A stretch of DNA of 64,000 bases. Source: a virus (lineage: Duplodnaviria; Caudoviricetes). A program made the position numbers and the translations under genes. The DNA lies in the IMG/VR virus record IMGVR_UViG_2700989102_000001, positions 32,001 to 96,000 of that record, one strand, 5' to 3'. The notes under the pieces were generated by a model. The model made no database searches and was not told the DNA's origin. It saw nothing but the letters and a program-made list of their open reading frames with translations. How positions within the stretch are numbered: the first letter of the stretch is position 1; each line of letters starts with the position of its first letter. Shown one piece after another: positions 301 to 59,944 of the stretch.

Positions 301-1801
301 CGGTCTCAAGGGCTACAACATCTACCTCGACGGCGTTAAGGTCAACACCGTCGAGGTAGCCGAGGGTCACCCCCTGGTCATTCCAAATGTCAATCCAGGG
401 ACGGATTATTCGTCGCGCATCACCATTGGCGCGGTCGATAAAGCCGGTAACGAATCGACTCCCGTGTCCATCGAGTCCTTCAAGGGCGCGGGGTCGGTCG
501 TTACCGCCTCACCGCCAGCCAGTGAGACTCTGTCCGCGACCGTTCGAGATCAGATCGATGCGCTCGTAGCTGCAAAAATAAAACCCTCCTCCGGCAGGGA
601 AGCCGACGGAGCGATGGTCGGCGTCGAAACGCCAAACGGCAACTACTACAAGGCGTATGGCGGCGACCGTACCCCCAATAAGCCGCTGACGCTGGATCTA
701 AACTTCCGCTATGGATCATGCTCGAAAATGTTCGTCAACGTCCTAATTCTCCGGGCGATCCAAAACGGATACATCGACTGGAATGACACGGTCGACATGT
801 TTGTCGACGGCATCCCAAACGGGCACAAGATCACCGTGCGGTATCTGCTCCTGTTCCAGGACGGCCTGAAGGACTGGCTGCAGGGCGACCCCGCAGTCCA
901 GCAGTCGTACTTCCTGAATCCCACGGCCGCTTTCGATCCGTTGGCCTACATCCGGGCCTCGACCCCGATATTCGAACCCGGGACCAGCTCGGCCTACTCG
1001 AACTCCGCGACACTGCTGATGGGCAAGATCCTGGAACACGTTGACGCCGAGCACGGGACCGGCCGAAGCATCCGACAGATCGTGGTCGAAGACTGGAACA
1101 GCGAGGTTGGCCTCCCGTCCCTGCACTGGCCAACCGCGCTCACCCCTAACGCCCCGTACGTCCGCGGCTGGACCCCTAACATGGCGCTGCCGCAGATTCA
1201 GGCGATCCTTGGCCCGTTCGCGTTCCTCGCCGGCCTGTTCGGCTATCCGACGTCGAAGGACCTGGAGTGGACTGCGGTTTCGACCACCTGGTCGGACGCG
1301 GCCGGCTCCCTCGCCGGGAACATGGAGGACTTCGTCAAGTTCGGCAAGGCGCTCTACGAGGGCGTGTTCCTGTCCGACGAGATGAAGCAACTCCGCAAAG
1401 AGTTGTTCACCACTTATCTGTTCTACGAACCCGCCGGCCCCTATCAGGGTCCGGGATGGATGGGATTCGGGCTCCAGGCAATCCGCTGGGCCTCGTGGCG
1501 CGGATGGGTCGGAAACCTCGGCGGCTACATTGCTGTCCTGTTCTACAAGGAGACGGATGGTTCGGTCATCGCGGTGATGATGAACAACTTCGCCTCCCAC
1601 GCGGACTGTGTCGACTTGTTCTATCAGATCGCCTACCTGCTCGACCCTGGGTCAACGCAGCACGTGCCGTGGCAATACCGGCCAGACCCGATCGAAGAAG
1701 ACGGCGAAGACGTCTTCAGCCCAGCCATTTTCGTTCAGAAGGAGCGCGGCGACGTCAATGGGCGCACCAAGCTTCCGATCACGCCGCCGTACCAACTCTA
1801 G
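293..1801 (+). CDS. Minor tail protein with serine beta-lactamase/D-Ala-D-Ala carboxypeptidase domain and N-terminal FN3-like segment
   Basis: SxxK (GSCSKM), YxN (AYSNS), ITVRYLL; ATG at 293 after GGAG, overlapping upstream stop. Confidence 0.85.
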   Translation: MPSGLKGYNIYLDGVKVNTVEVAEGHPLVIPNVNPGTDYSSRITIGAVDKAGNESTPVSIESFKGAGSVVTASPPASETLSATVRDQIDALVAAKIKPSSGREADGAMVGVETPNGNYYKAYGGDRTPNKPLTLDLNFRYGSCSKMFVNVLILRAIQNGYIDWNDTVDMFVDGIPNGHKITVRYLLLFQDGLKDWLQGDPAVQQSYFLNPTAAFDPLAYIRASTPIFEPGTSSAYSNSATLLMGKILEHVDAEHGTGRSIRQIVVEDWNSEVGLPSLHWPTALTPNAPYVRGWTPNMALPQIQAILGPFAFLAGLFGYPTSKDLEWTAVSTTWSDAAGSLAGNMEDFVKFGKALYEGVFLSDEMKQLRKELFTTYLFYEPAGPYQGPGWMGFGLQAIRWASWRGWVGNLGGYIAVLFYKETDGSVIAVMMNNFASHADCVDLFYQIAYLLDPGSTQHVPWQYRPDPIEEDGEDVFSPAIFVQKERGDVNGRTKLPITPPYQL

Positions 1802-5944: not shown

Positions 5945-6271
5945 ATGCAAAACGTCATCATTTCACTCGTCATCAAGATTATCGCTGAGGCCGCCAAGAA
6001 CGAAGATGTCCGCAAGTTTGTCCTCGAACTGGTGAAAGAACTTGCCGATAAACTCAAGGACGATCTCGTCCCAGCGCTTATCGCGCTGTTCCCGACTTTC
6101 GGCGGGGCGATCATCAAATCCGCCTTGGACTTCCTCCCCGAGGTTGACCTGCCGGATATCGATGTCCTGAACACCGATATCGCAAAGAAGATTGTAGACG
6201 CCGATCCCGACCTTCCGTTTGTGTCGGACATCATCGACATCACCGAGATTCTCAAGGGCTGGATCAAGTAA
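5945..6271 (+). CDS. Hypothetical protein preceding lysin A
   Basis: 108 aa ORF with RBS, amphipathic helical. Confidence 0.75.
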   Translation: MQNVIISLVIKIIAEAAKNEDVRKFVLELVKELADKLKDDLVPALIALFPTFGGAIIKSALDFLPEVDLPDIDVLNTDIAKKIVDADPDLPFVSDIIDITEILKGWIK

Positions 6272-23523: not shown

Positions 23524-24321
23524 ATGATCCCCGCACTTACGCATTTCGATGCGAGACGGAAGTTCCTCGCCGAATCCGTCCGCTACAACAGCACCGGCCA
23601 GAAGCTCGACATCTGGCTTCCCCTCAATCCCGTGGATGCACCGGTCTTCATGTTCATCCCCGGCGGGGCCTGGACCATCGGGGATCGGCGCGGCCAAGGC
23701 TACGCCATCATGTCCCACCTTATTCAACAAGGCTGGATCTGTGTCGCCATCGACTACCGCACCGCTCCCCAGAACCAATGGCCCGCCCCTTTCGAAGATG
23801 TCAACGACGCCTGGAATTGGGTTGTCTCGAACATTCACGCTTACGGCGGGGGAGACTTCCTCGCGGTCGGGGGAGCTTCCGCCGGCGGCCACATGGCCTC
23901 ACTCTTGGGATTGACCACATGGTCATTCTCTAAACCCGATGCAGTGATTTCTTTGTACGGGGTGTACGACTGGACCTCCAAGAGCCTCGACCACTGGTTG
24001 ATCAACCGGTACGTGGAGAACGTTGTGGTGGGCCGACGCGACCCCGAAACCCTCCGCGTCTCCTCGCCCATCCATCAGGTGCACCACGACGCCCCGCCTT
24101 TCCTGATCATCCAGGGGGATAGGGATCTGGTTACTCCGCAGGGCGGGGCGAAGAAGTTCCACCAGAAGCTCGTGAAGACCTCCCAGAATCCGGCGGTGTA
24201 TCACAACATCCCCGGCGGGGTGCACGGGTTCGACCTGATCCAGCCTCGGCAGACCAAGTCCGCAGTGGGGGCTATCGACCACTTCCTCTCTTCCCGCATC
24301 GCCCTCCAGGAGGCGTCGTGA
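23524..24321 (+). CDS. Alpha/beta hydrolase (HSL-type esterase/lipase)
   Basis: PGGAW oxyanion, IDYR.AP, GASAGG, QGDRD, HGFD. Confidence 0.92.
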   Translation: MIPALTHFDARRKFLAESVRYNSTGQKLDIWLPLNPVDAPVFMFIPGGAWTIGDRRGQGYAIMSHLIQQGWICVAIDYRTAPQNQWPAPFEDVNDAWNWVVSNIHAYGGGDFLAVGGASAGGHMASLLGLTTWSFSKPDAVISLYGVYDWTSKSLDHWLINRYVENVVVGRRDPETLRVSSPIHQVHHDAPPFLIIQGDRDLVTPQGGAKKFHQKLVKTSQNPAVYHNIPGGVHGFDLIQPRQTKSAVGAIDHFLSSRIALQEAS

Positions 24322-24436
24322 CCACTCCTGCGATCATCTTCCTCGCCTCCGTAGGAATCGCCCCCATCGTGGCGCTCCTCATCGGCACCGTCCAGGCTAG
24401 GGCCGAGCGGTGGGCGCACGATAAGGACTTTTGGCT

Positions 24437-24682
24437 ATGAGGACCTGCACGCGCGAAGACTGCGAGCGGAAACACCACGCCAGGGGATACTGCAAGTTCC
24501 ACTACAAGCGCTGGCACGACGGTGTCGACCTAGACCGCCCCTACGGCCCCGGTCGGCTGAGGTTCTTCGACTGGGCGATGTGCGGAACGCCAGCCCAATA
24601 CAAGAAGCATCTTCGGCACAACATCCCGATGTGCGAGCCGTGCCGGAAAGCGGAGAGTCGACGCCAGCAGGATCGGCCATGA
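24437..24682 (+). CDS. Zinc-binding hypothetical protein
   Basis: CTREDC..H.ARGYC..HY; CGT...CEPC. Confidence 0.65.
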   Translation: MRTCTREDCERKHHARGYCKFHYKRWHDGVDLDRPYGPGRLRFFDWAMCGTPAQYKKHLRHNIPMCEPCRKAESRRQQDRP

Positions 24683-24987
24683 AAGATTCCTCGGAACATT
24701 TACAGGGATCTGATCATGGCGCTGATAAAATTGGACTACCCGAAGGACTGCAAGACTGGGGGCCAGCGTGCGGAATGCGAGAAGAACTTCTCACGCTCCC
24801 AGTGTGCAGAAAACCCGCTACGCACAGTCTCAACGACTGCGACAACGTCGTTTTGACTTGCCTCGAATGTCATCAAGCTTATATGGATTATCTTCGCCAC
24901 GAGGTGTCCACCTTCCCCAAGGCGAAGTGCAAGACCTGCGAACAGGATGTTGATCTCCTGCTCCACCTTCAGCTGAAGAAGCTGTAA
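24679..24987 (+). CDS. Cys-rich hypothetical protein
   Basis: ATGA coupling; CLECH, CKTC. Confidence 0.55.
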   Translation: MKDSSEHLQGSDHGADKIGLPEGLQDWGPACGMREELLTLPVCRKPATHSLNDCDNVVLTCLECHQAYMDYLRHEVSTFPKAKCKTCEQDVDLLLHLQLKKL

Positions 24988-24989
24988 CA

Positions 24990-25223
24990 ACAGACTTACA
25001 TCGCTTTTCACGGCGGGATGCCAGCGTTCTCCAAAGTCGATGGGGATGACGATTCCACCAGCCCTCGGGTGCCGTGTTGAGTACATAAAAATGTGACGGG
25101 TTAAGCCATAGGGGCAGAAATGCCGCCCGCGGGGACACATAAACCCCGCCGTTAGCCTTCGGGCGCGTAGACCCACTTCGGTGGAGGATCAAGCTTACCC
25201 AGTTTTTTGCAGAGAAATCTGCA
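24990..25223 (+). ncRNA. Putative structured non-coding RNA
   Basis: No coupled + strand ORF; stems CACGGC/GCCGTG, GGGTTAAGC/GCTTACCC enclosing GAAA and two UUCG tetraloop hairpins. Confidence 0.6.
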
Positions 25224-25290
25224 GCGCACGGCCGGAACGGTCCGGCATGAATTCCGATTCATCAAGGTTCAACTCCTTGCGTGCGCACCA
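25224..25290 (+). ncRNA. 67 nt tRNA-like RNA lacking canonical D and anticodon loops
   Basis: 7 bp acceptor GCGCACG/CGTGCGC + ACCA; T-arm CAAGG-TTCAACT-CCTTG; two 6 bp tetraloop hairpins between. Confidence 0.7.
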
Positions 25291-25291
25291 G

Positions 25292-25326
25292 GCCACGGGA
25301 GGTGTCTGCTCCCTCCCGTGGCTTTT
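25292..25326 (+). terminator. Intrinsic terminator after tRNA-like element
   Basis: GCCACGGGAGG...CCTCCCGTGGC-TTTT. Confidence 0.8.
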
Positions 25327-25354
25327 CCATGCCCATTTACCAGGAGGTAGGTCC

Positions 25355-25654
25355 ATGCGCGGATTCGACAAATACCAGCAGGCTCTGCTTGCCGGGTTGT
25401 GGGCACTGTGCGACGCCCAGCCGCCCGAGAAGCAGGAGCTGCGCCGGCTGCTCAACCCCCGCACCACGGTGACCAGCGAAGCGCACGTTGTCATGGCCAC
25501 GAGGGCGGCCGAGGACTTCCACCACAACATCCGCAAGGGTTTGACGGAGTTGTCCCGGGCCACCCAGAAATACCCTCGCTACGCCTTCGACAAGGACCGA
25601 AGGGGAACGGGTGTCCCGAATCATCGAAAGGTCAGGGTCAATGACGGTCGATAA
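25355..25654 (+). CDS. Hypothetical protein
   Basis: AGGAGGT RBS. Confidence 0.65.
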   Translation: MRGFDKYQQALLAGLWALCDAQPPEKQELRRLLNPRTTVTSEAHVVMATRAAEDFHHNIRKGLTELSRATQKYPRYAFDKDRRGTGVPNHRKVRVNDGR

Positions 25655-25771
25655 CGCGGCTAAGGTTCTCTACCTGGCCTACCACAAGGATCGCTACGCC
25701 CCGCATTGGGAGTCCGCGTTGGATAAGACGCGGTGGCGGCGGGCGGCGGCGGCCCTGCTCCAGGAGATCAA

Positions 25772-25933
25772 ATGAACCGCTGGAAAGTCCGCAAAGAAGA
25801 CGGCATCTGGAAGATCTACGAGCACGATTCCTGGTGGGACTCCGAATACGAGTTTGATCAGGCGATCTTGTGGGCCCACCGCTTTGCCGTGTCCGCATTC
25901 GTTATGGACGGTGGTTTAGGTGACTGCCGCTGA
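25772..25933 (+). CDS. Hypothetical protein
   Basis: AGGAG RBS; MNRWKVRKEDGIWKIY. Confidence 0.6.
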   Translation: MNRWKVRKEDGIWKIYEHDSWWDSEYEFDQAILWAHRFAVSAFVMDGGLGDCR

Positions 25934-58341: not shown

Positions 58342-58395
58342 CGGACCAAGAAGGGAACAGCAAAAAAATAGACCCCTCCAAGCCTCTCAACGATG

Positions 58396-58424
58396 CTCAA
58401 ACGGGAGGGGCCGTGTGGTACACT
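58396..58424 (+). promoter_or_regulatory. SigA-type extended -10 promoter for the RNA cluster
   Basis: CTCAAA-17 nt-TACACT with TGTGG extension. Confidence 0.55.
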
Positions 58425-58461
58425 AGATACTAGTTCCGGGCGCGCAACCCGGAAGGCGCGA

Positions 58462-58629
58462 CAGAATGCCTGTATCCGCGTGGATGCGGGGGCGGTGGCT
58501 CTCCTGCGGGCTCCCCCATATGCGCTGGGGGCGCTACGGAGAGTTTGGGACACCGCGAACGGGAATTGGCGCAAGACCGGGAAACCGGGCCTTGATGCCC
58601 CCCGTTGGGTTCGATTCCCGGGGATTCTG
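58462..58629 (+). ncRNA. ~170 nt tRNA-shaped RNA with greatly extended internal arms
   Basis: Terminal stem CAGAAT(G)CC/GGATTCTG adjoining T-arm TTGGG-TTCGATT-CCCGG; three internal helices. Confidence 0.55.
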
Positions 58630-58679
58630 CTTCGCGCAAAGCCCAGGAGTGGTTGCCCTGTTGAAAACTAGCAACCTAC

Positions 58680-58751
58680 GCGCTTGCGGTCGAGTTGGAA
58701 AGACTCCTGGCTTCCACCCAGGTTATGCAGGTTCGAGTCCTGTCGAGCGCT
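58680..58751 (+). tRNA. tRNA-Gly (TCC)
   Basis: Acceptor GCGCTTG/CGAGCGC, U73, anticodon arm CCTGG-CTTCCAC-CCAGG, T-arm GCAGG-TTCGAGT-CCTGT. Confidence 0.92.
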
Positions 58752-58752
58752 C

Positions 58753-59110
58753 GGAGGCTTAAGCTAACAAGCCGCCAGAAACTAAATTAGCCGATAGTTG
58801 GCAGCCCTAGACGTTAAATCACCCTGCCCGGCGTTCGCTTCCGTCGTCAACCAGAAGCATGAACTTGGTCGGAGCTTTGTGGCAGCGGGGTGGAATTAAC
58901 CCCAGGCCCTCCGACCTGGCCCTACCCCCGCCCGCCTGAATACAGGTAAGTCAGAGGGGCTGACTTCGAAGGTGGCGGGACTCAAAAGGGTTTACCCAGG
59001 ACGGCCCACCTGGGGATCAAAAATGGGTAACGCGAGTTCCTGCCCGCCCCTCGCAAACAAGGGCGGTGCCGACTTTAAGGAGGTCTTTCCATGCGTTAGG
59101 TAGCTAACAA
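58753..59110 (+). ncRNA. Putative ~350 nt structured RNA 3' of tRNA-Gly
   Basis: No ORF of 60 aa or more in any frame; many nested stems. Confidence 0.5.
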
Positions 59111-59856: not shown

Positions 59857-59928
59857 TGGCCCGTAGCTCAATTGGCAGAGCGGCCGGCGGTAATTCGGCG
59901 CGTCTCGGTTCGAGTCCGGGCGGGCTAC
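59857..59928 (+). tRNA. Atypical tRNA, anticodon GTA (nominally Tyr)
   Basis: TGGCCCG/CGGGCTA, TAGCTCAATTGGCAGAGC D-arm, GCCGG-CGGTAAT-TCGGC, CTCGG-TTCGAGT-CCGGG. Confidence 0.8.
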
Positions 59929-59944
59929 CTACTTTTCCTGTGAG

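Follow-up and report, generated by a model that had tools for sequence, protein, structure and literature searches.

An ORF-free gap in the early operon contains a structured RNA

The 64,000-nucleotide (nt) stretch of DNA studied here (hereafter the window) comes from a 106-kb IMG/VR virus, which in BLAST searches is 99% identical to Mycobacterium phage HokkenD near the element described below and 98% identical around it to many other Cluster J (Omegavirus) phages. The element occupies a gap free of open reading frames (ORFs) at 25009-25326 on the + strand, in the early rightward operon of this Cluster J mycobacteriophage, and we concluded that it is one multi-domain structured RNA, which is of a known general kind and constitutes a new family not in Rfam. 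The gap extends from the stop codon of the upstream gene (TAA, 24985-24987) to the start codon of a small gene, termed gpA (ATG, 25355), and it lies about 2.5 kb downstream of a divergent repressor/helix-turn-helix region; across lineages, the RNA is about 2 to 2.5 kb away from the repressor/cro region. An initial annotation had pointed to this gap as a rarity in a translationally coupled operon, which was borne out by the relatives. The small + strand genes of the surrounding operon overlap or abut, and the RNA gap is the sole exception, measuring 367 nt in HokkenD (genes 92 to 94), about 410 nt in phages Omega and Courthouse, and 547 nt in phage WXIN.

On the + strand, a spacer that follows the upstream stop codon (24988-25008) leads into a 5′ domain (25009-25076), which in the minimum free energy (MFE) fold is closed by CACGGC (25009-25014) and GCCGTG (25071-25076) and contains a GGGAT/ATTCC helix and two small hairpins. 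The single-stranded segment GTGAC (25093-25097) is located directly 5′ of the first helix of a five-way-junction core (25098-25200), which was delineated by a pair check, a search model (R1), an alignment, and independent folds. In the core, P1 pairs GGGTTAAGC (25098-25106) with GCTTACCC (25193-25200), leaving one bulged T at 25102, and encloses four hairpins: P2 (25111-25127; GGCA-GAAA-TGCC), with a GAAA loop and a bulged G at 25125; P3 (25129-25149), formed by GCGGGG and CCCCGC; P4 (25150-25167), with a UUCG loop (GCC-TTCG-GGC at 25155-25164); and P5 (25173-25184; CCAC-TTCG-GTGG), which also carries a UUCG loop. An A/U-rich linker (25201-25207, with a T-run at 25203-25208), whose sequence varies among lineages, connects the core to hairpin H (25208-25223; TGCAGA-GAAA-TCTGCA). 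These are followed by a tRNA mimic without an anticodon arm (25224-25290), a terminator-like hairpin (25292-25326), and gpA with its ribosome-binding site (25342-25654), all on the + strand. Every helix and tetraloop named in the initial annotation was found in the sequence and by the pair check, and the MFE fold of 24988-25295 reproduced them. Folding energy was not used as evidence since the MFE z-score is not significant on either strand (−1.17 on the + strand, where 11 of 100 shuffles were equally stable, and −0.85 on the minus strand).

The core is conserved in eight phage lineages

BLAST placed the region in 44 Cluster J-type records, comprising 27 near-identical sequences, 16 of the Omega/Courthouse subtype, and the divergent WXIN, which was recovered by BLAST alone. 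Between the two Cluster J subtypes only 25011-25291 aligns as DNA (about 81%), while the flanking DNA does not. Pattern scans on conserved junction blocks then added five loci: L008, L009, L012 (phage Gaia, Cluster X), L015, and L016. This gave eight lineages, namely, the two Cluster J subtypes, WXIN, Gaia, two viral contigs (L008 and L009), and two metagenome contigs (L015 and L016). Model R1, which was built from the window and a near-identical sequence with a hand-drawn structure, yielded 9 matches among 34 sources, with scores ranging from 23 to 156 bits, and it recovered all eight lineages and none of the 25 chance loci.

The pairing of the core was examined in an alignment of nine rows, two of which represent one lineage, that was fitted to model R1; the row of Gaia is out of register at the P1 5′ end, and that of L016 fits badly in P2 and P3. 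Standard pairs occupy 96.9% of the 260 core pair cells, versus 41.5 to 48.3% in controls in which the partners were slid by 1 to 3 columns. Half of the core pairs (15/30) have changed on both sides, across 40 cells, and none of 500 shuffles reached any of the observed pairing measures. Such two-sided changes are found in P1 (6 of 8 pairs), P2 (4/6), P3 (3/6), and P5 (2/4) but not in P4 (0/6), so that P4 is conserved and unproven as a helix, with five of its six pairs never varying. Unconstrained folding of the isolated cores, one sequence at a time, produced the same closing stem and four hairpins in seven of the eight lineages, L016 being the one that deviates. On the opposite strand, 19 G-U cells would turn into A-C mismatches, which marks + as the strand of the RNA. 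These data indicated that the initial annotation was right in regarding the gap as a folded RNA of the + strand, whose pairing is kept among relatives.

While the helices have been rewritten, the junction has hardly changed. Three blocks (CGTTAGC, GCGCGTAGACCC, and GGAGGATYA) are near invariant, and ACAGG, the bulged G followed by CCC, and GTGAC are likewise fixed, the last being identical in eight of the nine rows and GTGAAC in Gaia. Loops are swapped freely, with UUCG replaced by GCAA and GAAA by loops of 6 to 7 nt.

The family is narrow, and all eight lineages are phage or phage-like. A strict core pattern had no hit in one genome for each of 185,579 prokaryote species. A looser pattern gave 24 places in prokaryote genomes, about the number estimated by chance, and all of them, as well as the viral contig L041, failed model R1 at E values up to 1. 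Scans in which each conserved block was freed in turn added no further true members; two of these patterns gave the candidates L042 to L048, and all seven failed R1 at E values up to 10. A locus search via gpA returned the same contigs only. The RNA is thus confined so far to Cluster J/X-type mycobacteriophages and a few uncultured relatives.

Outside the core, conservation is more restricted. The 5′ domain is common only to the two Cluster J subtypes, those of the other lineages being different. It is less well supported than the core: a comparison of the window with Omega shows a few consistent changes (G-U to A-U and U-A to C-G), and the outer stem is reduced to 4 bp in Omega. Downstream of the core, WXIN, L008, L009, and Gaia carry the GCAG/CTGC closing stem of hairpin H, which in them encloses a three-way domain of 60 to 70 nt. 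Hairpin H is a tetraloop-capped truncation of this domain, which the classical Cluster J phages have reduced. The three-way domain was located at 3078-3161 in L004, 5623-5702 in L008 (minus strand), 2386-2466 in L009 (minus strand), and 1548-1630 in L012; it lies between the core and the mimic and keeps AAATAYGG, YACACC, and GAGGTAAAG-like segments. In most relatives, the RNA exceeds the size of about 220 nt given in the initial annotation, and the extended three-way domain stands in place of the GAAA-capped hairpin.

A tRNA mimic without an anticodon arm follows the core

The mimic at 25224-25290 was identified by a scripted module search, which looked for a T loop with a T stem and a 7-bp acceptor stem around it, and by a second model, R2. 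Its acceptor stem (GCGCACG/CGTGCGC) has 7 bp, the loop of its D-like arm ends in GGT, and a variable short hairpin stands in for the anticodon arm. The T arm (CAAGG-TTCAACT-CCTTG) is followed by a discriminator A and an encoded CCA. One module was found in each of six of the eight lineages (seven of the nine loci scanned), downstream of the core in every case. These six lineages have different acceptor, D, and T stems, yet all of the stem pairs are formed (99/99), and all six carry the T loop TTCRAYT and the GGT of the D-like loop. A T loop and a D-loop GG are the elements that build the tRNA elbow. The middle arm ranges from a 4-nt linker to a 16-nt hairpin across lineages, and only the two Cluster J subtypes (the window and Omega) encode CCA.

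Model R2, built from the window, Omega, and Gaia, independently found the modules of WXIN, L015, and L008, with E values from 4e-7 to 6e-3. It detected only the one copy in the window and none in L009 and L016. In the latter two lineages, the place of the mimic is taken by a plain hairpin, which is a perfect 17-bp stem in L009 (2340-2385, minus strand) and an 11-bp stem in L016 (about 930-965, minus strand). The tRNA-like tag of the initial annotation is therefore present in six of the eight lineages and is replaced by a plain hairpin in the other two.

We found that the mimic has the 7-bp acceptor stem, the TTCRANY-type T loop, the D-loop GG, and the discriminator with CCA of a tRNA; what it does not have is the anticodon arm of the cloverleaf, with its 7-nt loop. 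The elbow, RCCA, and the stack of acceptor and T stems are all retained. ARAGORN did not call the mimic and reported only a tRNA-Gly and a tRNA-Tyr elsewhere in the window, and the Rfam tRNA model (RF00005) matched neither the mimic at E values up to 10 nor the modules of the relatives at E values up to 1. The only notable Rfam alignment of the mimic was to mascRNA-menRNA (RF01684), which covers 25224-25286 with 23.2 bits versus a gathering threshold of 42.5 (E = 0.028 in a 601-nt search); this subthreshold match can be traced to the tRNA-like shape and the short middle arm. The mimic is closely framed by other structures, with hairpin H abutting its G+1 and the next hairpin beginning 1 to 7 nt after the discriminator or the encoded CCA.

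The downstream hairpin, gpA, and putative promoters

The terminator-like hairpin consists of an 11-bp stem (25292-25302 with 25312-25322) followed by TTTT. Its 5′ strand is purine rich and resembles a Shine-Dalgarno (SD) sequence (GGGAGG), and its 3′ strand is pyrimidine rich (CCCTCCC). A terminator scan with a threshold of 5 T in 8 did not flag 25292-25326, which has only 4 T. A long hairpin follows the position of the mimic in every lineage, purines prevailing in its 5′ strand and pyrimidines in its 3′ strand; those of the relatives are longer and composite. A clear U-tract (U6) follows it only in the Omega type, the window has UUUU, and the other six lineages have none. In the initial annotation, the RNA, the tRNA-like tag, and a terminator were inferred to form one expression and processing unit. 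The three elements are indeed physically linked in one conserved cassette and may be expressed and processed together, and the hairpin is terminator-like; with no U-tract in six of the eight lineages, it is probably not simply a terminator.

The hairpin is followed by a strong ribosome-binding site for gpA, a protein of 90 to 100 amino acids, after a spacer of roughly 12 to 20 nt as read off the sequences. In the window, the site is AGGAGG (25342-25347), and gpA has 99 amino acids (phrog_6612). A gpA homologue follows the RNA in all eight lineages, and the order of core, mimic, and gpA on the + strand is constant wherever the mimic is present. The protein has a conserved, Arg-rich C-terminal tail (FDxxRRGTGvPxxRKVRV) and shows 61% identity between the two Cluster J subtypes. 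Its AlphaFold2 model, of low confidence (predicted local distance difference test score, 58.7), has three helices and a disordered tail. Only two clusters of gpA exist in a large protein database, and searches of gpA gave no Pfam family and no Atlas neighbor. A further small gene follows gpA (25641-25775 in the window) and was seen at least in the window, WXIN, L008, and L016.

As for promoters, the window carries a degenerate −10-like hexamer, ATCGCT, at 25000-25005, where three relatives have an extended −10 motif (TGNTAAGCT or TGCTAAACT); this positional match was made by eye and is to be taken as putative. Extended −10-like motifs at the 5′ edge of the RNA region are TGGTAAGCT in Gaia (L012, about 1266-1276), TGATAAGCT in L016 (about 1283-1293, minus strand), and TGCTAAACT in L008 (about 5962-5972, minus strand). 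These motifs suggest that in these three lineages the RNA is transcribed from a promoter of its own, possibly also in lysogens. Among the public sequencing runs listed, no RNA run contained the element, and the material compared from four runs consisted of contigs. One 178-nt contig from a run labeled RNA-Seq, which is probably DNA, spans 24950-25125; no RNA boundary matched it, and such contigs say nothing on the ends or the level of an RNA.

Several genes recur upstream of the RNA. The gene two positions upstream in the window (24437-24682) has an HNH-endonuclease-like N terminus and a WhiB-like C-terminal match, and Omega, WXIN, and Gaia carry HNH or WhiB genes just before the RNA. A BD-FAE-type esterase gene was found 0.8 to 1.6 kb upstream in every lineage checked.

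Comparison with known RNAs

The initial annotation had not recognized the family, and Rfam did not supply one. A scan of the whole window at gathering thresholds returned only a tRNA and an abiF motif, both elsewhere, and an E-value scan of 24850-25450 (E up to 10) gave only subthreshold, chance-level matches, as did scans of six relatives (E up to 1). The models of GOLLD, ROOL, raiA, and OLE had no match in the window (gathering threshold and E up to 10) or in the six relatives (E up to 1). Literature searches, in which supplements such as the PMC10690425 table of about 10,000 viral candidate RNAs were left unread, gave no description of this RNA, and no Cluster J transcriptome was found. The Cluster J genome paper contains no occurrence of "non-coding," "noncoding," or "small RNA," and the main text of the 224-motif paper contains none of "mycobacteriophage" or "Mycobacterium."

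GOLLD and ROOL are the nearest known RNAs. Like the RNA studied here, they are phage-borne, multi-domain, and supported by covariation, with no function assigned. They are described as often lying beside tRNA genes, GOLLD sometimes having a tRNA or pseudo-tRNA inside or linked to it, and GOLLD is also described from Mycobacterium tRNA arrays that hold an HNH endonuclease gene (PMC6582537; bioRxiv 10.1101/2024.12.08.627333). In contrast, our RNA is far shorter, with about 320 nt in the window and at most roughly 550 nt in relatives, resides in an early operon rather than a tRNA island, and is linked to a mimic lacking the anticodon arm instead of a tRNA. Next nearest are MALAT1/mascRNA and MEN-beta/menRNA, in which, as here, a tRNA-like cloverleaf whose middle arm is short comes after a long structured RNA. 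In the logic of the MALAT1/mascRNA type, as portrayed in PMC9777231, tRNA-processing enzymes make the RNA ends. The mascRNA-menRNA family is vertebrate and nuclear, so the likeness would be one of shape and proposed mechanism only. A comparable tRNA-like module is found in the tRNA-miRNA transcripts of the herpesvirus MHV68.

Other phage and bacterial RNAs share single traits with this one. C4 of phages P1 and P7 is a small antisense RNA without a separate tRNA-like cloverleaf module. According to PMC11143913, host RNase P generates the mature form of this phage regulatory RNA from an operon transcript. The RNA studied here has no evident antisense target. The bacterial Y RNA YrlA is likewise noncoding with a tRNA-like elbow, whereas its acceptor stem is closed and the one found here is open and ends in CCA. 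YrlA is described as having a tRNA-like domain and as occurring in mycobacteriophages that encode Ro60 (PMC4201824). A Y RNA identity was rejected, since the phage record has no match to a TROVE/Ro60 gene in a search to which control genomes responded and Rfam gave no Y RNA match. A tmRNA was also rejected, as neither ARAGORN nor Rfam reported one and the mimic is contiguous rather than formed by two RNA ends. For a riboswitch, no Rfam class matched, and the core and the downstream hairpin are at least 90 nt apart; a novel ligand is possible. Finally, lambda nut/N, HK022 put, and bipartite systems resemble this locus in their early-operon setting, with a terminator-like hairpin and the gene of a small Arg-rich protein downstream, but our RNA is far larger and more complex and has neither a boxA/boxB-like element nor a match to put.

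Proposed function and its alternatives

We propose that the mimic is a maturation signal, at which host RNase P and tRNA 3′-end enzymes would release a stable core that binds a conserved partner, and we give this proposal an even chance of being right. The RNA would be an early transcript, arising in the window lineage when transcription from the early lytic promoter reads through and driven, in Gaia, L008, and L016, by an extended −10 promoter of its own. Host RNase P would then cut between 25223 and 25224, and the 3′-end enzymes would trim after the discriminator or the CCA. The upstream RNA would thereby be released with a flush GAAA-capped hairpin at its 3′ end, and the gpA mRNA would be left starting with a stable 5′ hairpin. 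Since only the parts read by processing enzymes (the acceptor stem, the T arm, and the elbow with the D-loop GG) appear to be kept and the anticodon arm is dropped, the mimic could serve as a built-in maturation signal. What RNase P, the 3′-end enzymes, and the CCA-adding enzyme read is retained and what decoding needs is discarded, and punctuation is the simplest reading of this pattern. Bacterial RNase P is described as processing non-tRNA substrates as well, including a phage antisense RNA precursor and operon mRNAs (PMC11143913). The plain hairpins of L009 and L016 would fit an end-forming role better than a tRNA-specific one. Because the core junction is invariant, it would be the working part and would imply a conserved partner, most obviously the Arg-rich gpA but possibly a host factor or a small ligand instead.

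Several observations weigh against this proposal. The ends, the abundance, and the cleavage of the RNA are all deduced from DNA sequence. The mimic is missing in two of the eight lineages and hence is not essential to the function of the core. A stable hairpin flush to the cleavage site and varied −1 nucleotides (A, G, and U) would not be ideal for RNase P, and a consensus scan revealed no sigma-70-like promoter in 24300-25700 of the window lineage. The invariance of the junction blocks arises partly by construction, as the search patterns required three blocks; this is offset by the block-freed scans, which added no true members, and by WXIN, which had come from BLAST alone. Moreover, the 47 phage records that contain the RNA are also those with gpA and the esterase gene, and they form one lineage; the co-occurrence therefore reflects shared descent, is not independent evidence, and does not argue for a functional link.

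The main rival holds that the RNA is a cis-acting leader for gpA and the long rightward operon, and we consider it possible, with a chance well under even. The core could sense a ligand or protein and control the downstream hairpin through termination or SD masking, or the RNA and the Arg-rich gpA could mediate processive antitermination like lambda nut/N, HK022 put, and the bipartite RNA-protein systems. HK022 putRNA (PMC9378689) and a bipartite antitermination system (PMC8191782) are the precedents. A leader would account for the position of the RNA directly upstream of gpA, inside the early operon, in all eight lineages, as well as for the terminator-like hairpin between the two, with its true U-tract in the Omega type. 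It would also suit the GGAG-like 5′ strand and CUCC-like 3′ strand of that hairpin in all eight lineages, the MFE fold of L008, in which the 3′ strand pairs with the gpA SD instead, and gpA itself, which is small and mostly predicted helical with a conserved disordered Arg-rich tail. What speaks against it is that independently folded modules of 90 to 230 nt (domain H and the mimic) part the core from the hairpin, unlike the expression platforms of known riboswitches, that six of the eight hairpins have no U-tract, that an antiterminator leaves the tRNA mimic unexplained, and that Rfam gave no match to put, EAR, or any riboswitch. Somewhat less probable still, and in our view rather unlikely, is a combination in which a new functional core, whether protein or ligand binding or catalytic, is coupled to the anticodon-armless mimic by a group of temperate mycobacteriophages, either as an RNA-protein switch with gpA or as a hijacker or decoy of the host tRNA-end machinery or defenses. 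In the switch version, the RNA and the Arg-rich gpA would govern the right arm of about 50 kb by processive antitermination or translational control. If either version were true, this would be the first known case in bacteria of a phage RNA that is matured or targeted through a tRNA mimic of its own.

The mimic could instead be the effector, acting as a decoy or sponge for host enzymes or defense toxins that contact the acceptor end or the elbow, or as a chargeable mini-tRNA, with the core as a scaffold. The elbow and acceptor features are perfectly kept despite the loss of the anticodon arm, two lineages encode the CCA, and Cluster J phages are described as carrying tRNA genes, a polynucleotide kinase, and an RNA ligase, which were interpreted as tRNA-repair counterdefense (PMC3706429). 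Nevertheless, the mimic is absent from two of the eight lineages and the core from none, the strongest sequence constraint falls on the core, and the genome holds a single copy, which together make an effector role improbable. Still less credit is due to a self-processing RNA, in which the five-way junction would be a new self-cleaving or catalytic motif: a near-invariant junction amid rewritten helices is the pattern typical of ribozyme or aptamer cores, but the RNA resembles no Rfam ribozyme family. That there is no RNA gene at all is barely conceivable. Some GenBank records annotate ORFs at this place (Omega gp110, HokkenD 93, and Gaia 73), and HNH endonuclease genes nearby in several relatives could hint at a site that acts as DNA, for example, an origin or the target of a homing endonuclease. 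Against protein genes, the annotated ORFs vary in strand and position by record, and the indels between the window and Omega (4, 1, 2, and 6 nt) keep no reading frame. Compensatory pair changes and strand-specific G-U pairs, in turn, reveal constraint at the RNA level and argue against both.

Structured noncoding RNAs of phages are few, and almost all have no function assigned. The comparative support for this RNA is unusually clear, the molecule is small enough for direct study, and the phages that carry it are well known, amenable to genetic manipulation, and propagated on M. smegmatis, a harmless laboratory host. The stripped-down mimic leads to a concrete prediction, namely, that RNase P cuts it in the way seen for the vertebrate MALAT1/mascRNA pair. 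Binding of the core to gpA or to a host factor, if real, would add a new level to the control of early genes or to host takeover in actinophages. The narrow distribution limits the generality of the finding.

Annotated ORFs over the RNA and a possible second noncoding RNA cluster

Several GenBank records annotate hypothetical proteins over an RNA gene. Those lying over or partly over the RNA are Omega gp110 (L002, 3094-3309), HokkenD gene 93 (L001, 5837-6187, minus strand), and Gaia gene 73 (L049, 4073-4222). Their strand and frame vary by record, and these ORFs are probably spurious.

Elsewhere in the window, a stretch of about 770 nt (58342-59109) has no convincing ORF and contains many GC-rich hairpins. 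It includes the abiF-motif RNA reported by Rfam (58374-58410; 54.9 bits versus a cutoff of 37) and the tRNA-Gly (58680-58752), and the tRNA-Tyr comes after it (59857-59929). A T-arm-like GGGTTCGATTCCC near 58607 is not part of any tRNA call. This stretch may be a second noncoding RNA cluster.

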